Below, piece after piece: positions 9,086 through 57,133 of a stretch of DNA of 64,000 bases. A program made the position numbers and the translations under genes. The number at the start of each line of letters is the position of its first letter. Position 1 is the first letter of the stretch. Source of the stretch: a virus (lineage: Duplodnaviria; Heunggongvirae; Uroviricota; Caudoviricetes); the IMG/VR virus record IMGVR_UViG_3300034691_000069, one strand, 5' to 3'. Under the pieces are notes generated by a model. It was not told the DNA's origin and made no database searches. It saw only the letters and a program-made list of their open reading frames with translations.

Positions 9086-9997
9086 TCAGTGATAGACCAA
9101 CTCACCGATGGATTTTTTGGTCACTCGGGCATTTACAGGGTTGCCAAAAATATGGATACCACCAATACCTGTCGCAGAGCCAACAATAGATTTTAATGCA
9201 GTCACTTTTACCTTACCGATACCGGACGAAATGAGTGTAACGTTATCCGCTTTCAATCCTTTTGCGTCAACAGATCCTGTGCCAGAAGTAGTCAAATCAA
9301 GGTTTTCGCAAGTTCCATCAAAAGTCGATGAACCCACTGAATCTTGTTTAATTTTGATAGATTGGGAAGCTTCGCCATTGTATTCAAAAGATCCGGTTCC
9401 GCTGATGTTAAAGACCGAGTTCAGAACACGACCAGAAATAAAACAATCCCCAGTGCTTTCTTTATTGACAGTGGCTTCATAGGCATTGATTTTTGCGTTA
9501 AAGGAGCCTGTCCCACGAATATCAAGCAAGATAGTGTCAAAGTCACCCGTCAAAAAACCTTTACCTGTGCCCAATTTCTTGATGTTTATTTTTTCTTGTT
9601 TAAAGTCTTGGATGTCAACTTTACTTGAGCCATTGTGAGCAATGGATTCTAATAGGGGTGCAGTAATGAAAAGCTTCATAACAGGGTTAATAAGAACATC
9701 CTTTTCAACCTTGATTTTAAAACAACCATTAACAGTTTCCACTTTTAAAAATGGAATGAGTTTTTCATTGATTTCAAGTTGAATGGTAAGATTTTCACCT
9801 TTTTGGATGACAGTTTCAAAAGGGCCAACAATACTTACCGAAGAGAAATCTTTAAATTGAACCGGATGGTTGACAACAGGGCCGTAGTCTTCTTTGGGGA
9901 TTTTACCGCCAACAATGGAACCATTGATGATGGTCACATTATTGAAGCTATTTTTTTTCCCGAAAAGCGACTCCATGACATCTTTGAATACGGACAT
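9086..9997 (-). CDS. DUF2807/GIN-domain-like beta-repeat protein (putative adhesin-head-like fold)
   Basis: repeated G(S/T)GS(F/V) / SGIG strands (DIRGTGSFNAK, ISGTGSFEYNG, TSGTGSVDAKG, SSGIGKVKVT) typical of DUF2807. Confidence 0.5.
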   Translation of the reverse strand: MSVFKDVMESLFGKKNSFNNVTIINGSIVGGKIPKEDYGPVVNHPVQFKDFSSVSIVGPFETVIQKGENLTIQLEINEKLIPFLKVETVNGCFKIKVEKDVLINPVMKLFITAPLLESIAHNGSSKVDIQDFKQEKINIKKLGTGKGFLTGDFDTILLDIRGTGSFNAKINAYEATVNKESTGDCFISGRVLNSVFNISGTGSFEYNGEASQSIKIKQDSVGSSTFDGTCENLDLTTSGTGSVDAKGLKADNVTLISSGIGKVKVTALKSIVGSATGIGGIHIFGNPVNARVTKKSIGELVYH

Positions 9998-15273: not shown

Positions 15274-15422
15274 AATGATAATTCTCCGTTGTTTGAAGTG
15301 TCTATTATAGCACTTTCGGCCAAGATAGACAATGAAAACTTTCCAAAATCAGCCACTTGCAATCAAAAATAACAGGAGTATACTTATAAATTAGATAGCA
15401 AGCTAACAATATAAAAGGTGAT

Positions 15423-15584
15423 ATGATGAAGAAAGAAAACGTGAAAAAAGAAATGACTGGATTGGTTTTAAGCGTGTTTATGGGGTTATTTGGCACTGGT
15501 GTTATGGCCGAAGACAACTCGAAAACAAGTGATATAAAAAGCGAAGCGACCACTCAGATAGATTCTAAAAAGCTTCAAAAGTAA
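15423..15584 (+). CDS. small secreted peptide about 53 aa (signal peptide then EDNSKTSDIKSEATTQIDSKKLQK)
   Basis: ATG with AAGGTG RBS; signal-peptide-like hydrophobic core; plus-strand island; below track cutoff. Confidence 0.45.
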   Translation: MMKKENVKKEMTGLVLSVFMGLFGTGVMAEDNSKTSDIKSEATTQIDSKKLQK

Positions 15585-15594
15585 TAGAAAAATC

Positions 15595-15623
15595 TTGTTT
15601 TTGATTTAAATATTAGGTATAAT
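15595..15623 (+). promoter_or_regulatory. plus-strand promoter ending in GGTATAATAGCCTCAC (14-mer shared with promoter at 40485-40500)
   Basis: TATAAT with upstream TTGTTT; transcript 5' end predicted inside a short hairpin agcctcacaaaccaaagaggct. Confidence 0.5.
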
Positions 15624-15653
15624 AGCCTCACAAACCAAAGAGGCTTTAATATC

Positions 15654-15863
15654 ATGGCAAAGAATCAACTGAACGAACATCCGGTAACAGAACAGATGTT
15701 GGCAGGTTTTGAAGTAGGCCAACCGATTGCCCGCTATTGCTTTTTCGTTAACCTGACCTTTAAAGGCATTGTAGACGGTGAAGTAATTATTGCCGATTGC
15801 AATGGTGATACCAAGAAACATCCGAAATGGCTCTTTTTGAAGCACGCCCGAGTTGCTAAGTAG
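15654..15863 (+). CDS. hypothetical protein (69 aa)
   Basis: ORF track; own promoter; terminator aaaaggcccgcagaagcgggcttttt at 15880-15908. Confidence 0.55.
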   Translation: MAKNQLNEHPVTEQMLAGFEVGQPIARYCFFVNLTFKGIVDGEVIIADCNGDTKKHPKWLFLKHARVAK

Positions 15864-15879
15864 TTTTTCCAACAGTAAT

Positions 15880-15908
15880 ATAAAAGGCCCGCAGAAGCGG
15901 GCTTTTTA
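15880..15908 (+). terminator. rho-independent terminator
   Basis: GC hairpin gcccgc-agaa-gcgggc + T-run. Confidence 0.6.
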
Positions 15909-15945
15909 TTGTCTTAAAAATTATGAATATTTTTGCAGAAAAAGC

Positions 15946-15974
15946 TTGTGCTCATCAGTAGTGTTTGGTATTAT
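15946..15974 (+). promoter_or_regulatory. sigma70 promoter TTGTGC-17-(TG)TATTAT driving non-coding unit
   Basis: good -35/-10 with extended TG; no ORF of significance downstream before terminator at 16133-16160. Confidence 0.5.
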
Positions 15975-15980
15975 AGCTGT

Positions 15981-16160
15981 GGAGATGCGGGATGAGAAAA
16001 AACTCATCTTTCAGGGTTGATGTTTAGCATCCGATGACCATTCAGAGGCTCTGCCGACATGGTAGCTCGTCATACGCTGGTGATGTATGATGGAAAACCG
16101 CACCGCATAAAAGGAGTCCAATCTTCTTTTTGGGAGAGGCTAAATGCCTCTTTTTTTTCG
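15981..16160 (+). ncRNA. candidate sRNA (about 180 nt, promoter- and terminator-bounded, multiple internal hairpins)
   Basis: unit between strong promoter and hairpin(gagaggc-taaat-gcctctt)+T8 terminator; only 11-38 codon ORFs inside, longest runs through the terminator. Confidence 0.4.
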
Positions 16161-16211
16161 TCTATGAAAAGCTAATAAGCATAAAAAAAGCCACACATAT
16201 GGCCTTTTGTT

Positions 16212-16985
16212 TTATGGTAATTGTGAATAATATCTATCAGGATTAATTGACTCAATCAGGTAAATAAACTCTTTTTTACTAGCAATATCACTGGCTTTAA
16301 ATTCAATCAGAAGATTGTCATAAAAATGTTTGTAGTCAGAAACTGATATGAAACGTGTATTATCACTAGTCATTGCCTTGAAAGCTTCCACTGATTTAGG
16401 TAATGGTAATAGATTGATAACTTCACCTATCTTACTATTCCACTTAAAATCCATTTTTTTAATACTATCCATATCATTAGTTATCTTTTTCAATGAGGCA
16501 TAATCATGAGTAGTTAAAGCCTTTGAAAATTGTAATCCAATATCTGATTTTGAAAAAGTTGGATTAGCCAACACTAATTTTTCATAAAGTTCACTAATCG
16601 GCTGATACATGTATTCATCTGTATTCTGATAATTATAAACAAAGAAAACTGCTGGTATCAAGGAAATTGTAGTCATGAATAGTGATTTTTTTAAATTATC
16701 ACGTTTAATCCAAGATAAAACAGTTGCGAGTGTGAATGCAAAATAAGTAAAGAAAAACATTAATGCCATGATGTTGAATGAATAGTCCCCCGGTTGAAAC
16801 AAATTAGCATACGTGTAACCATCACTAATAGCTATTTTATGATTAATCATGTTCATTACAGTCAGTGTTATATAATAGAGTGCCAATGGCACTAAAACAA
16901 TTGACACTAGCACTGCAATTAATTTTTGAACAAGTGTAAATTCAACATTTCTTTGCCCCGTAAGGTCAGATTTATGCTCAGACAT
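16212..16985 (-). CDS. multi-pass inner-membrane protein (4-6 TM helices)
   Basis: ORF track; several hydrophobic helices. Confidence 0.55.
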   Translation of the reverse strand: MSEHKSDLTGQRNVEFTLVQKLIAVLVSIVLVPLALYYITLTVMNMINHKIAISDGYTYANLFQPGDYSFNIMALMFFFTYFAFTLATVLSWIKRDNLKKSLFMTTISLIPAVFFVYNYQNTDEYMYQPISELYEKLVLANPTFSKSDIGLQFSKALTTHDYASLKKITNDMDSIKKMDFKWNSKIGEVINLLPLPKSVEAFKAMTSDNTRFISVSDYKHFYDNLLIEFKASDIASKKEFIYLIESINPDRYYSQLP

Positions 16986-31124: not shown

Positions 31125-32246
31125 TTACTCGGGGATAGGCACTTGTTTACGAGCAAACACCATGATAGCGGCTTGTTTGTAATCAATTTCATCACCCGAA
31201 AACTTGCTCATCAACACCGACAGAAGCAATGGAGCCACTTCTTTGGCTTTACGAGCGTAATCGCCACGTTCCAAACCTTTATGCTCATCGTAGAAGCTGT
31301 CAACCGTGCGAACAAGGTAATGGTAGCTTTTACGGGCGTAGTCTTCGACTTCATCCAAGCGAGCCAGAATTTCAGCCAGTGGGAAATTATCGCTGTGTGT
31401 CCGGTAGTGATACAACGAACGGATTTCATCCAGAATTTCATGAAGGGTTGCTTCATAAATAACCTGACGTTCCTTCGAACGATCCTGAATGTTGACCACT
31501 GCCGACATTTTCAGGTAAGGAATGGTCTTGACCTTATACATGTCAGGGCCGATTTCAATCACATAACCTTCGATATCGGGGTCATTCACGTTGATTTCAT
31601 TAACGGGAATACGCTTCACCAGATGGGCAGCAATGACCGGATATTCTGCGGCAAATTCTGCCGAACGAATGTCCACATAAGCCCCTGTGTTCATGTCGCG
31701 GGCTTTCAACACATGAACTTCGTAGGTAGTGTATTCGATGAAAACACGGTTTTTCGGCGTGGTCAGTTCCAAGTCAACCGAAACACCTGTGCGGGTCAGC
31801 CGTTCAACGTCTGCGTGCAATTCTGGACTGATAGACTGTTCAACAAGGCCGTAATCAGCAAACGTAGGCTTCTTTTTACTCTTGTAGTAAAGAGTATCAT
31901 TGATCGGAGAAATATAGCTGGTGAGCAACGAGCCATCGGGTTTCAGATAAGCATGGTCGGCTTCTTCTGGCTTCACCTTTTGCGTTTCAGGGGTTTCGCC
32001 CAAGGAAAAGAATTTCTGCATTGGCAATGCCACCAGCATTGGCTCAGAACCGCCCATATAGAACATGACACCACGGCAATCCTTAGCACCCGGAAGTTTG
32101 AATTCGGAATGCTTTGGAATGTCATAGTTGAAGACACGGTAAGTCCCGCCGTCTACCGCCGAGATTTCATCACGGTATTTGAAAGACCCCGGATTAGTCA
32201 CCAGCAGGTGCATCAGTTGGGCATACAGTTCTTGTTGATAAGTCAT
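31125..32246 (-). CDS. rnlA: RNA ligase 1 (T4 gp63/Rnl1 homolog); start taken at second Met (GGAG RBS)
   Basis: similarity to T4 Rnl1 including YR(V/I)F.Y...LP...CRG(V/I)MF, nucleotidyltransferase motif I KPDGSL and motif IV EGYVI; antisense 373-aa track ORF is a shadow. Confidence 0.8.
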   Translation of the reverse strand: MTYQQELYAQLMHLLVTNPGSFKYRDEISAVDGGTYRVFNYDIPKHSEFKLPGAKDCRGVMFYMGGSEPMLVALPMQKFFSLGETPETQKVKPEEADHAYLKPDGSLLTSYISPINDTLYYKSKKKPTFADYGLVEQSISPELHADVERLTRTGVSVDLELTTPKNRVFIEYTTYEVHVLKARDMNTGAYVDIRSAEFAAEYPVIAAHLVKRIPVNEINVNDPDIEGYVIEIGPDMYKVKTIPYLKMSAVVNIQDRSKERQVIYEATLHEILDEIRSLYHYRTHSDNFPLAEILARLDEVEDYARKSYHYLVRTVDSFYDEHKGLERGDYARKAKEVAPLLLSVLMSKFSGDEIDYKQAAIMVFARKQVPIPE

Positions 32247-32302
32247 GTGAATCTCCATGATTAAATTGTCTGAATCTATTATATCAAAAACTGATTTTTA
32301 AT

Positions 32303-33216: not shown

Positions 33217-34338
33217 TTAAACGGGAGCGGACAAGTCGCCAAGCTCAATTTGTTCCAACGACCAATCAACCAGATGGTTTTTAGAGTAGTGATACAGGTA
33301 GTCGTTTTTGTGACCACGAATTGCCCCCATAACAAAACCAAAGTGTTTGTGGCCTTTGAGTTGGATTGCTGCAGTTTTCACGTCAACACCTTGGAATGCA
33401 GCAGCAATATCATCAACCTCTTTCGACAACGCTTCAATCGAAGCTTTGATAGCGTCATTGATACGATAAATTTCACTCAAATCAGCCGTTGGCGAGTTTA
33501 GCGACAAATAAGCAATGTAATCATCAAGTTTTTCTTCGACCACCAAACGAGCAATATCACGTTCACGAACAAAGCTAACCGCATGATGGAGATTCATATA
33601 CCATTTGGTTTTGATTTTGATCATGTTACCGTTAACGAATTGAATAACATAGCCTTCAATCCCTTCAACCGTGTTCAGCGACTTCAAAAGGGAAGCCAAA
33701 TCAAATTCTTCACCAAACAGTGGCTTGTTAACAGGAATATCAAACAACAACGCCAGTTGGTCTTTTTCAGCAGGCATTAAGTAATCGCCTGTGATGTTGT
33801 GACGAACATGAAGCAATGTCATGTTGTCTTCGTCATAACGCAAAACGATACGATGCTTTGGCGAAGTGAATTCAAAAATTGGCGTCAGTTGGGCCTGAGA
33901 GCAATATTTGGTGAACTCGTAGTATTTCTGGTTACGAGAGACAAAGCCTTCTGCCGAAACAGCCACATCCGATTTGAAAGACTTCTTGGACTTAGCAAAG
34001 AATTCGCCTTTGAACAGACCTGTGGTAATCATGGAGCCATCCATTTTATCAAACCCGGCAACCATAGTGTTCCAATCCAAAACGGCTGGCTGGACTTCTG
34101 CACGCTCTGCCAAGTTGAAGAATTTGTGCAATGGACGCGACAGTATTTTACCGTTGTCGTCAAAGGTAATACCGCGAGCTTCCTTTTCAACCGGAGTGTT
34201 GAAAGAGTCACCGTTGCTGATGTTGTAGCAAACGATGTCGGCACCGTTATCCTGTTTGTTAACAGAAATATAGGCACGGTCTTTGATATGAGGAATCATA
34301 TCATCAAGGGTTTCAATACGGGGGAAGATGCTGGACAT
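33217..34338 (-). CDS. second Rnl1-family RNA ligase (paralog of rnlA, diverged)
   Basis: EARGITFDDNGKILSRPLHKFFNL (cf. T4 Rnl1 ECRGIMFEMDG...RPMEKFFNL), motif I KMDGSM, motif IV GIEGYVIQF...IKIKTKWY. Confidence 0.7.
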   Translation of the reverse strand: MSSIFPRIETLDDMIPHIKDRAYISVNKQDNGADIVCYNISNGDSFNTPVEKEARGITFDDNGKILSRPLHKFFNLAERAEVQPAVLDWNTMVAGFDKMDGSMITTGLFKGEFFAKSKKSFKSDVAVSAEGFVSRNQKYYEFTKYCSQAQLTPIFEFTSPKHRIVLRYDEDNMTLLHVRHNITGDYLMPAEKDQLALLFDIPVNKPLFGEEFDLASLLKSLNTVEGIEGYVIQFVNGNMIKIKTKWYMNLHHAVSFVRERDIARLVVEEKLDDYIAYLSLNSPTADLSEIYRINDAIKASIEALSKEVDDIAAAFQGVDVKTAAIQLKGHKHFGFVMGAIRGHKNDYLYHYSKNHLVDWSLEQIELGDLSAPV

Positions 34339-35735: not shown

Positions 35736-36590
35736 TTACTGCTTTGGTTGAACGATGGGCTGTGGAACTGTTACCCCTTGTGGAAGGGAGCCACCACCAC
35801 CCAAGACAATCAACATGTTGACGTTATCTTTCTTTTTGACCGTTTCAACAATCTCACGCTGGTTGTCAATTTCACGACCTCGCAAGTATTGCTCAGGTGT
35901 CATTTTCATTTTGCTCATGTATTCATTGTCAGCAGCAGCTTTGTTGGTTTCAGCTTCTTTTCGCTGAGTTTCAGCAGACGCTCGTTCAATTTCAGTTAAT
36001 GCACGTTGAATTTGAGCTTCTGTCCGAGCAGTTTCTGCAAGAACTTCATCTGGCGGCATAATTGCACCGATAGTTACAGCCAAAATTCGAACCGGAATGC
36101 CTTTTGCTACAACAATGTCAACCATTTTCTTGTAAACATCGTCTTCACCTGAGTCAGTCACTGTCTGTTCTGTAGTGAGTTGCTTCACAGTGTGTTTTCG
36201 AGCAAAGTCACGAAGCATGTTTTGAAAGTCTTTTTTCAAGTTGTTATCATACATTGCATTACCAAAGCTTTCATGGTAGATGTAAGCTTTTTCAGGAATG
36301 ATTTCATAACGAACCACCGCTTTAAAGTCTACAGGAGTCGAGTTAATGGTTGCCAAGTCATTAAACGCCTCTTCTTTCTGAATAGGTTTAATGTCATAGC
36401 GGTGCATGATGGAAGTTGGCGAGATATAATAGCGATCACCACCTTTATAAACTTCTTTCTCTACACCACCAGTGCCGAAGTAGGGGTGTTTTTCAACCAC
36501 ACCGACAAAACCCGCATCTAAGGTTTCAGAACACCCACTGAGGGCAACTGAGGCCAGAAGAACAAGAGAAGCAAAAATCTTTTTAAGCAT
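35736..36590 (-). CDS. SPFH/band-7 (prohibitin/HflKC-like) lipoprotein
   Basis: lipobox LSGC; central SPFH-like region followed by Ala/Glu-rich coiled-coil (ETARTEAQIQRALTEIERASAETQRKEAE). Confidence 0.55.
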   Translation of the reverse strand: MLKKIFASLVLLASVALSGCSETLDAGFVGVVEKHPYFGTGGVEKEVYKGGDRYYISPTSIMHRYDIKPIQKEEAFNDLATINSTPVDFKAVVRYEIIPEKAYIYHESFGNAMYDNNLKKDFQNMLRDFARKHTVKQLTTEQTVTDSGEDDVYKKMVDIVVAKGIPVRILAVTIGAIMPPDEVLAETARTEAQIQRALTEIERASAETQRKEAETNKAAADNEYMSKMKMTPEQYLRGREIDNQREIVETVKKKDNVNMLIVLGGGGSLPQGVTVPQPIVQPKQ

Positions 36591-55499: not shown

Positions 55500-56372
55500 T
55501 TACCACTGCGGTGTGAACTGATATCCATTGCTTGATTTTGGTGGTGTGTACCATGAAGGCCATTTTGTAGTCGAATCATACAAGATATTAGTGAAATCAA
55601 CATTGGTAAAACTACTCGTACTGAGATCAGCTCCAATCAAATTTGCGTTAGTTAGGTTCGTATTAATAAATGCAGTATTAGTTAATATAGCTCCTGTAAA
55701 ATTTGCATTAGTAAAGTTCGTGTCAGTGACATAGGAAGTATCAAAATTAGCATTCGTTAAGTTAGCATTGGTCAAGTTTGCACCAACAAAAGCAGCATTA
55801 GTTAATACAGCACTTGTTAAATTAGAGTCAGTAAAATTAGTTTTTTCTAAATATGATTTATCCATATAAGCATTTGTTAAGTTAGCATTACTAACATCTG
55901 CATTCGTTAATGCAGTGCTTTCTCCATTTACGGTAAACTGAGTGCCTATTAGGGATGCTCCTGATAGATTACTGTTAGTTAAGTTAGAATTACCTAATAT
56001 AGCTCCATCTAATATTGAATTTGCAAAATTAGTAAAAAGCATACCGGTTTTATCAAGCGTGTAACCAGAAAGATTTCTATTTGAATAATCACCACAACTA
56101 ATGTCATAGTCTCGTATAGGATCAGTCAAAGGGTTTATTTTATTAGGAAACGAACCACATTTAGCTTCATATGCAGCCAATATAGTAGGGTCAGTAAAAA
56201 CTAATCCTCCATCACCATCACCATTACCACCACTACCGCCTGAGCCACCACTGGAAGTGTTATCATTGAAAGAAATTGCATGTTGAATTGGAATATGAAT
56301 TTGATAATCAGCTTGCGATAAAGTGCCTAAACTGGATAGAGCAATTAATGCTAAAATATATTTTTTTGTCAT
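55500..56372 (-). CDS. secreted pentapeptide-repeat protein
   Basis: signal peptide, Gly/Ser/Asp linker (SGGSGGSGGNGDGDGG), then about 30 A(N/D)(L/F)(T/S)N pentapeptide repeats. Confidence 0.7.
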   Translation of the reverse strand: MTKKYILALIALSSLGTLSQADYQIHIPIQHAISFNDNTSSGGSGGSGGNGDGDGGLVFTDPTILAAYEAKCGSFPNKINPLTDPIRDYDISCGDYSNRNLSGYTLDKTGMLFTNFANSILDGAILGNSNLTNSNLSGASLIGTQFTVNGESTALTNADVSNANLTNAYMDKSYLEKTNFTDSNLTSAVLTNAAFVGANLTNANLTNANFDTSYVTDTNFTNANFTGAILTNTAFINTNLTNANLIGADLSTSSFTNVDFTNILYDSTTKWPSWYTPPKSSNGYQFTPQW

Positions 56373-56870: not shown

Positions 56871-57063
56871 TATCGTATTCTCCTAATATTTAGTTGTTAA
56901 CAACACAATCTAGATTGCATTAGTTGCTTTAATTATAATGATATAAAGTATTAATAATTTACCACAGTGATGTAAAAAGTCAATAAATAATGAAAATGAT
57001 TATCATTACACAATGTAAAAAAGTAATAAAAAAACCACTCGAAAGTGGTCTTAGTGTATAAAG

Positions 57064-57133
57064 GCTGTATGATGGGATTCGAACCCACGACTACCGTTTT
57101 TCGACGGAGTTCTGCCGACTGAACTACAAACAG
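57064..57133 (-). tRNA. tRNA-like element with canonical acceptor/D/T arms but aberrant anticodon arm (3-4 bp stem, 6-8 nt loop UCGAAAAA); no encoded CCA
   Basis: minus-strand read CUGUUUG-UA-GUUC-AGUCGGCA-GAAC-...-GUGGG-UUCGAAU-CCCAU-CAUACAG; T-loop GGUUCGAAUCC perfect. Confidence 0.45.

Follow-up and report, generated by a model that had tools for sequence, protein, structure and literature searches.

A candidate non-coding RNA gene with covarying hairpins and its own predicted promoter and terminator in a large uncultivated phage

Genomic context of the locus

The stretch of DNA analysed here, which we call the window (64,000 nt; IMG/VR record IMGVR_UViG_3300034691_000069), comes from a large, uncultivated, T4-like or jumbo-type phage. 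It looks like an accessory region of that phage, with a dense array of small genes, chiefly on the minus strand, and three tRNA or tRNA-like genes. A short plus-strand island comprises a 53-aa gene, a 69-aa gene and, as its third member, a predicted small RNA (Table 1). Each of the two protein genes is preceded by a promoter-like site, and the small RNA converges on a membrane-protein gene on the minus strand (16212-16985).

Several other genes of the window deserve mention. Two paralogues of T4-type RNA ligase 1 (31125-32258 and 33217-34338, minus strand) lie about 1 kb apart, their top phage match being the Ralstonia jumbo phage RsoM2USA (42% identity), and a Nudix gene is also encoded. The window further carries genes for pentapeptide-repeat, SPFH/Band-7 and DUF2807 (adhesin-head-like) proteins (55500-56372, 35736-36590 and 9086-9997, minus strand), which are unusual accessory genes in a phage.

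Table 1. Positions of the small RNA, its predicted signals and hairpins, and associated features. Positions refer to the window unless a contig of a relative is named.
Feature	Position	Strand	Remarks
A-tract, UP-element-like, 5′ of the -35	15939-15943	+	AAAA kept in at least 12 of 14 homologues amid differing surroundings
-35 element TTGTGC	15946-15951	+	TTG at a fixed distance in at least 12 of 14 homologues; 17-nt spacer to the -10
Extended -10 TG and -10 hexamer TATTAT	15966-15967 (TG); 15969-15974 (hexamer)	+	Consensus TTTG.TATTAT, at least 12 of 14 homologues at those columns
Small RNA	15981-16160	+	Predicted +1 at G15981, to the end of the terminator U-tract; about 178-180 nt
P1, 5′ hairpin	15989-16010	+	8 bp, 15989-15996 with 16003-16010; A-rich 6-nt loop; 100% of cells paired
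Central block, CGAUGACCAUUCAGAGGCU (16032-16050), highly conserved on to AUGGUA (16064)	16032-16064	+	Proposed functional site
18-codon ORF (MTIQRL...), not a gene	16034-16090	+	No upstream Shine-Dalgarno; 13-18 codons elsewhere
38-codon ORF, not a gene	16059-16175	+	38, 35, 27, 18, 16, 46 or 10 codons in homologues
P4 hairpin	16067-16093	+	10 bp, 16067-16076 with 16084-16093; loop CUGGUGA, UGGU invariant
P5, A-rich/U-rich hairpin	16109-16130	+	16109-16116 with 16123-16130; directly 5′ of the terminator
Intrinsic terminator	16132-16158	+	9-bp stem, 16132-16140 with 16146-16154; loop UAAAU; U8 at 16151-16158
Upstream terminator, 69-aa gene (15654-15863)	15887-15902		Listed on the minus strand by the scan; 5′ boundary of the intergenic region
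Terminator of the convergent membrane-protein gene (16212-16985)	16185-16208	-	From the scan; separate from the small-RNA terminator
Example sites of the promoter family	15595-15630, 46392, 49264, 57717, 23601	minus-strand sites	Window-wide layout
tRNA-like gene of relatives	L003 5349-5422; L004 7525-7598; L007 and L011 7526-7599	- (L003); + (L004, L007, L011)	ARAGORN call 'tRNA-???, anticodon aa'

Extent of the transcription unit

The initial annotation had described a unit of about 180 nt bracketed by a promoter and a terminator, and both signals were recovered, as a sigma-70-type promoter (15946-15974) and as a strong intrinsic terminator (16132-16154, followed by U8). Several unrelated versions of the promoter spacer are present among the copies found in relatives, with the A-tract, the TTG, the TG and the TAnTAT unchanged in position. 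Such fixed elements across unrelated spacers are the pattern expected under selection for promoter function, and they place the predicted transcription start at or adjoining 15981. A generic promoter scan missed this promoter because three of the six bases match at the -35. It is nevertheless a member of the GGTATWATAGC family of the window, of which 10 sites were found against 1.05 expected, a number that none of 100 shuffles reached. The layout AAAA..(C/G)TTGT-N17-G(G/T)TATAAT, often followed by AGCCTCAC, is common to about 15-20 gene promoters in the window (examples in Table 1), and the A-tract is likewise common to the other promoters of the window.

At the other end of the unit, the terminator sequence GAGGCUAAAUGCCUCUUUUUUUU is unchanged in all copies, and the changes in the lower stem are of the type G-U to A-U. 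A scan of the 4.5-kb region found 11 terminator-like sites against 2.7 expected. The GC-rich hairpin on the 5′ side of the intergenic region, GCCCGC-AGAA-GCGGGC, is flanked by T-runs on both strands; because the plus strand also has a run after the hairpin, TTTTTATT, it may terminate transcription in both directions in the interval between the 69-aa gene and the promoter of the small RNA. The membrane-protein gene has a terminator of its own, so that the locus is predicted to consist of two convergent units without overlap. The transcription start, the stability and the abundance of the small RNA are predictions made from these signals.

Relatives and conservation of the small RNA

Metagenomic contigs with relatives of the locus (L numbers below) were reached by searching with the proteins of its two neighbours and of the Nudix gene nearby. 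A search with a 19-mer core pattern yielded three further true copies, found the L023 contig again and gave eight chance matches. The full-length copies number 14, of which 13 are distinct (window, L002-L007, L011, L014, L016, L029, L030, L032 and L023). The 13 metagenomic copies are 74-100% identical to that of the window, a limited divergence within what is one phage clade, and a covariance model matches all 14 copies at 108-228 bits.

The block of conservation coincides with the predicted transcript: it starts at 15980/15981 and ends after the U-tract, with a mean pairwise identity of 0.85 in the body that drops to 0.63 over the 50 nt before it and to 0.50 over the 40 nt after it. In genomes of the L004 type, the small RNA is 97-100% identical to that of the window (99% in L004 itself), whereas the identity is 74% for the 69-aa gene, 83% for the Nudix gene, 95% for the 74-aa gene and 92% for the 128-aa gene; downstream they encode a different protein of 239 aa, of which 48% aligns with the membrane protein, at 67% identity. 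Compared with L016, the small RNA is 88% identical and the neighbours 68-82%. In L002 and L014 the small RNA (94% and 92%) falls below the adjacent small genes (95-97%). By these comparisons, the small RNA is conserved as much as, or more than, most of its coding neighbours.

The identity forms a mosaic across 15400-16160 in the comparisons with L002-L016, the adjacent genes of L004-type genomes being mostly 67-86% identical, which suggests that recombination has swapped small modules between related phages. The copy of L023 is flanked by entirely different genes, and the small RNA therefore behaves as a self-contained module. It is absent from the more distant contigs L021 and L022 (Nudix proteins about 60% identical).

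L001 (5823-6004, minus strand) carries a natural deletion variant that lacks the first 61 nt of the RNA together with its promoter and the upstream terminator. The remaining 3′ part, in which the core reads AGAGCC instead of AGAGGC, is fused immediately after the upstream gene, which is here a divergent version of 88 aa.

Among 50,697 phage records, megablast, blastn and tblastn detected no match to the region, to its neighbours or to a 23-kb stretch, except for distant ones to RNA ligase. Scans of IMG/VR with the neighbour proteins and two RNA patterns also gave none, and a first gapped pattern had no match in metagenome or genome contigs. An exact look-up of the window's own proteins retrieved none on record, and a search of the window against itself revealed no second copy or paralogue of the small RNA.

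Some of the contigs with close relatives of the region are very long (L003, 1.85 Mb; L029, 1.86 Mb; L016, 1.07 Mb; L030, 0.68 Mb), and one Nudix cluster is located on a contig of 0.83 Mb. The contigs of 0.68-1.86 Mb are far above known phage genome sizes and could represent concatemeric or chimeric assemblies, or an unusually large genome. L032 (JAZBLF010000044.1, 672 bp) was binned into a Bacteroidota MAG, most likely a binning artefact with little bearing on the host.

Secondary structure

Covariation in relatives had been named beforehand as a check on the unit, and three hairpins do carry compensatory changes. RNAalifold, run on a structure-blind MAFFT alignment of 10 copies, predicted the hairpins P1, P3, P4, P5 and the terminator; in this alignment four P4 pairs change on both sides. 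A covariance model of six helices was then constructed and used to align the full set of 14 copies. In the resulting alignment, 98.7% of the cells are paired and 11 pairs have changed on both sides. Sliding the partners by 1-3 columns leaves 0-2 such pairs, and shuffling the columns gives 4.7 +/- 1.1; the observed 11 was not attained in any of 500 shuffles. These counts lean towards the structure, since the alignment was fitted to the model, and the MAFFT result for P4 is independent of it.

The GAUGAG-A6-CUCAUC hairpin that had already been noticed was found at 15991-16008 and extends to the 8 bp of P1. In P1, the pair 11:28 changes from G-C to A-U in two sequences, and three other pairs have changed on one side with pairing kept. 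In P4, both partners have changed in 5 of the 10 pairs, a single position can have as many as four pair types, and 99.2% of the cells are paired; the seven distinct versions of the stem are paired at all but one position (one C-A in L030). Four of the eight P5 pairs have both partners changed; L030 has lost this hairpin, which indicates that it is dispensable or variable. The AAGGAG in the P5 region is not conserved, being AAGUGA in L016, L029 and L032.

The stems contain many G-U pairs, which would be A-C on the other strand, so that the structure is predicted to be specific for the plus strand, in agreement with the orientation of promoter and terminator. The folding z-score is -2.37 on both strands and does not tell them apart. 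The central domain could adopt either of two folds, P2 plus P3 or ACCAU/AUGGU plus GGC/GCC; each is 97-100% paired and scarcely varies, and neither covaries. Two further helices were rejected: a long-range helix proposed by RNAalifold (5-10 with 123-128) breaks in divergent copies and has no covariation, and the inner hairpin GAUGU/GCAUC of the single-sequence minimum free energy fold is contradicted by the variation at columns 40-41.

The invariant central block and a possible action in trans

The most conserved part of the RNA lies in its central domain. The 19 nt at 16032-16050 are identical in all 14 copies, including the 74%-identical copy of L023, save for one C-to-U change in L014, and columns 71, 72 and 78 of the block vary in L023 only. 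For columns 59-70 the mean unpaired probability is 0.56, and the two alternative folds partly bury the block. It is purine-rich and resembles a Shine-Dalgarno region, with AGAGG followed after 10 nt by AUG. Such conservation makes the block most likely the functional site of the RNA, be it a seed or a protein-binding site.

Among the three mechanisms offered by the initial annotation (a trans-acting RNA, a cis-antisense regulator and a micropeptide-encoding RNA), action in trans is the one that still appears plausible; the other two did not survive comparison and are considered below. We propose that host RNA polymerase would transcribe the small RNA from its sigma-70-type promoter, probably early in infection, and that the 5′ hairpin and the terminator would stabilise it by protecting its ends. 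The almost invariant central block, CGAUGACCAUUCAGAGGCU...GCCGAnAUGGUA, would be where the RNA acts in trans, most likely by base-pairing with an RNA of the host or of the phage, for which CAUUCAGAGGCU is the candidate stretch. The A-rich stretch, the U-rich stretch and the U8 tail could serve as the handle for a chaperone of the Hfq type. We hold this reading as a whole, a structured RNA gene of about 180 nt acting in trans via its central block and most likely by base-pairing, with moderate confidence.

The base-pairing itself is put forward more tentatively. Hfq-type features can be read from the sequence: the U8 tail, a U-rich stretch 5′ of the terminator and, downstream of P4, a conserved A-rich stretch that precedes the terminator. 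Where Hfq-dependent sRNAs have a U-tail of at least 6-7 nt, the RNA described here has a 9-bp stem with U8, invariant in the 14 copies. The U-tail, the U-rich stretch and the A-rich linker fit a handle of the Hfq type and for this reason favour base-pairing in trans. Against it, the proposed seed is Shine-Dalgarno-like (AGAGG), whereas typical seeds are anti-Shine-Dalgarno-like. In a duplex scan of the core against the 263 translation-initiation regions of the window, the best duplex (-23.6 kcal/mol) was matched by 14% of shuffles, i.e., targets within the window are at chance level.

A Shine-Dalgarno-like block suits a protein-binding or decoy role about as well as base-pairing. The RNA would in that case mimic a translation initiation region and bind and titrate a protein or complex, with the hairpins as scaffolding; candidates are ribosomal protein S1, whole 30S subunits, a nuclease of host defence and a translational repressor made by the phage. 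Several observations would fit: 16032-16064 is conserved through predicted loops and stems alike, as suits a protein recognition site; AGAGG and AUG are present at constant spacing in all 14 full-length copies even though the ORF that follows is unconserved; the P4 loop retains UGGU; and the scan of the window found no RNA target above chance. On the other hand, no candidate for a partner protein is conserved beside the RNA, the neighbours of L023 differing from those of the other copies; the AUG and part of the Shine-Dalgarno are buried in both candidate folds; and the window has 6 AGAGGCU heptamers versus 3.7 expected, which is no enrichment. We regard a protein-binding or decoy RNA as unlikely and place it second, after base-pairing in trans. 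Less likely again, and offered as speculation, is the narrower version in which the RNA soaks up a host factor early in infection, either as a mimic of a translation initiation region or with the block and the UGGU loop imitating part of a host RNA. Examples of such a factor are a translational repressor, a protein associated with ribosomes or a defence nuclease that targets RNA. The RNA would then serve in anti-defence or takeover, as a type of factor so far undescribed in large lytic phages. It can be mentioned here that this phage lineage has two RNA ligases and odd tRNA-like genes.

Coding potential

Small ORFs had been reported inside the unit, and indeed it contains ORFs of 11, 11, 18 and 38 codons, the last of which crosses the terminator (Table 1). 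A small-protein gene or a dual-function RNA, in which the 38-, 18- or 11-codon ORF encodes a functional micropeptide, could draw on the AGAGG located 10 nt 5′ of the AUG at 16059, both kept in all full-length copies, and on a 36-aa version called by a gene caller in one metagenome. The comparison of the ORFs argues against it. The length of the 38-codon ORF varies among homologues because of a 1-nt indel and substitutions: it is frameshifted or truncated to 10-27 codons in 6 of the 13 distinct sequences, with MV(A/T) alone in common. Between the window and L002, changes in this ORF fall five times at codon position 2 and four times at position 3, and they coincide with the compensatory changes in P4, tracking base-pairing instead of the reading frame. 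HMMER, run with the 38-aa sequence against 1.84 billion proteins, returned one near-identical 36-aa call with a different C-terminus and no protein family; matches to huge repeat proteins were rejected as spurious multi-stretch matches.

The shorter ORFs fare no better. In copies with an intact 18-codon ORF, its first six codons (MTIQRL) do not vary, but the ORF lacks a Shine-Dalgarno and a CAG-to-TAG nonsense change in L014 leaves three codons. Both 5′ ORFs have their start codons in or beside the P1 stem, no more than 12 nt from the 5′ end, and are lost in L023. No ORF has a conserved frame, length and sequence, and the homologues in relatives are not protein-coding, as the earlier remark that the unit has no credible ORF had implied; a clear protein-coding homologue had been named beforehand as grounds for refuting the small RNA. 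Taken with the near-empty HMMER search, this makes a micropeptide, in our judgement, very improbable. In practice, gene callers occasionally mis-call the small RNA as a protein of 36-38 aa.

Decay or action in cis as improbable explanations

One could also suppose a non-functional remnant or neutral spacer, i.e., a decayed fragment between a promoter and a terminator that was spread by recombination. The unit of L001 is half-deleted in a genome that is otherwise apparently intact, and the mosaic identity points to frequent recombination. However, three stems are kept by compensatory substitutions, the promoter elements are retained over unrelated spacers, and the RNA matches or exceeds the conservation of most adjacent coding genes, all of which makes this explanation slightly more doubtful even than a micropeptide.

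The least probable explanation is a cis-acting element, either an antisense or convergent-transcription regulator of 16212-16985, as suggested initially, or a leader or attenuator of a downstream gene: the unit does point at the 3′ end of the membrane-protein gene, with the two terminators about 30 nt apart, but 52 nt separate the end of the RNA, at about 16160, from the stop codon at 16212, and each of the two genes has its own terminator, so that they do not overlap; L004-type genomes keep the RNA at 97-100% identity where this neighbour is replaced or 67% identical; the L023 neighbours are unrelated; and the RNA is not a leader or riboswitch, since no gene lies downstream on the same strand, the next gene being convergent in the window and in most relatives.

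Assignment to a class of RNA

The locus has the marks of a structured non-coding RNA gene in general: compensatory changes, transcription signals of its own and no conserved ORF. At the level of sequence comparison, these results show an autonomous, structured, non-coding unit under purifying selection, and we consider that 15981-16160 is very probably a genuine non-coding RNA gene.

Its assignment to a particular class was attempted with Rfam 15. At gathering thresholds, a scan of the window detected three tRNAs elsewhere and no match to the small RNA, among families including phi29 pRNA, 6S RNA, hammerhead, twister and pistol ribozymes, riboswitches, Y-RNA-like RNAs and CsrB/Rsm. A permissive scan of 15850-16260 gave weak matches driven by terminators, with E-values of at least 0.65 inside the RNA and scores far below threshold, and a scan of the relatives gave no match.

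Three more specific identities were also considered. Neither ARAGORN nor Rfam calls a tRNA in 15981-16160, and the P4 loop has 7-9 nt on a 10-bp stem, so a tRNA or tRNA-like RNA was rejected. The core motif of hammerhead ribozymes includes CUGANGA; the hammerhead-like CCGAUGA...GAAA of the small RNA has a C for the conserved U and an implausible topology, with no Rfam match, and was likewise rejected. A count by eye gave five GGA motifs (CsrA-type) in 180 nt versus a rough expectation of about 3.5, which is not clearly above it.

Comparison with known phage small RNAs

By its sequence features, the small RNA appears to be a new RNA family within a known kind, the small RNAs encoded by phages. 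Phages and prophages encode several Hfq-dependent trans-acting sRNAs, such as PreS of lambda, DicF, IpeX and AgvB/AsxR, and the characterised phage small RNAs are mostly from temperate phages (PMC12197685; bioRxiv 10.1101/2024.10.31.621285). Like these Hfq-dependent sRNAs, the RNA of the window has a predicted stand-alone promoter, a Rho-independent terminator with a long U-tail and a highly conserved stretch between hairpins, with no conserved ORF. Unlike them, it is at the long end in size (about 180 nt), its conserved stretch is Shine-Dalgarno-like instead of anti-Shine-Dalgarno-like, it derives from an apparently large phage of the virulent type and it has no similarity in sequence or in Rfam.

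The small RNAs of large lytic phages come chiefly from transcript maps and have no assigned function (PMC8244752, PMC5563952). Those of phiKZ (PMC8244752) and of PAK_P3 and PAK_P4 (PMC5563952) resemble the present RNA as small transcripts of large phages of the lytic type; they were found by RNA-seq, and we did not meet evidence from covariation in these two papers, whereas the RNA described here is known from sequence alone, through comparative genomics and covariation. It thus stands as a cleanly delimited family with covariation support that moves as a module between phage genomes, and the covariance model is ready for annotating it in metagenomic phage genomes. If a partner were found, it would show how such phages use RNA, and not protein, to act on the host or on their own programme. 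To our knowledge, small RNAs of large lytic-type phages are few, and almost none has comparative support.

In lambda, the 6S RNA (pR′-tR′) is about 190 nt long, starts at a strong promoter, ends at a terminator and is the substrate for antitermination by Q into the late genes on the same strand. The small RNA of the window is predicted to be a similarly short promoter-to-terminator transcript; the next gene is here convergent, and read-through would have no obvious purpose. The RNAs C and D of phage T4 are small stable non-coding RNAs that adjoin tRNA genes and are processed from the tRNA precursor transcript. By description they are comparable to the small RNA in relatives (L003, L004 and L023), where it adjoins a tRNA or tRNA-like gene, with the difference that the present RNA is predicted to be transcribed as a unit of its own, from promoter to terminator, in a direction divergent from that of the tRNA-like gene.

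This tRNA-like gene (Table 1) lies between the 69-aa gene and the small RNA in several relatives, on the strand divergent from the latter. It scores below the Rfam threshold for tRNA and is preceded by a perfect TTGACA-17-TATAAT promoter. The window has no such gene beside the small RNA and encodes a similarly odd tRNA-??? at 57063-57133 (minus strand), whereas in L023 a normal tRNA-Arg(TCT) is found about 520 nt from the small-RNA copy.
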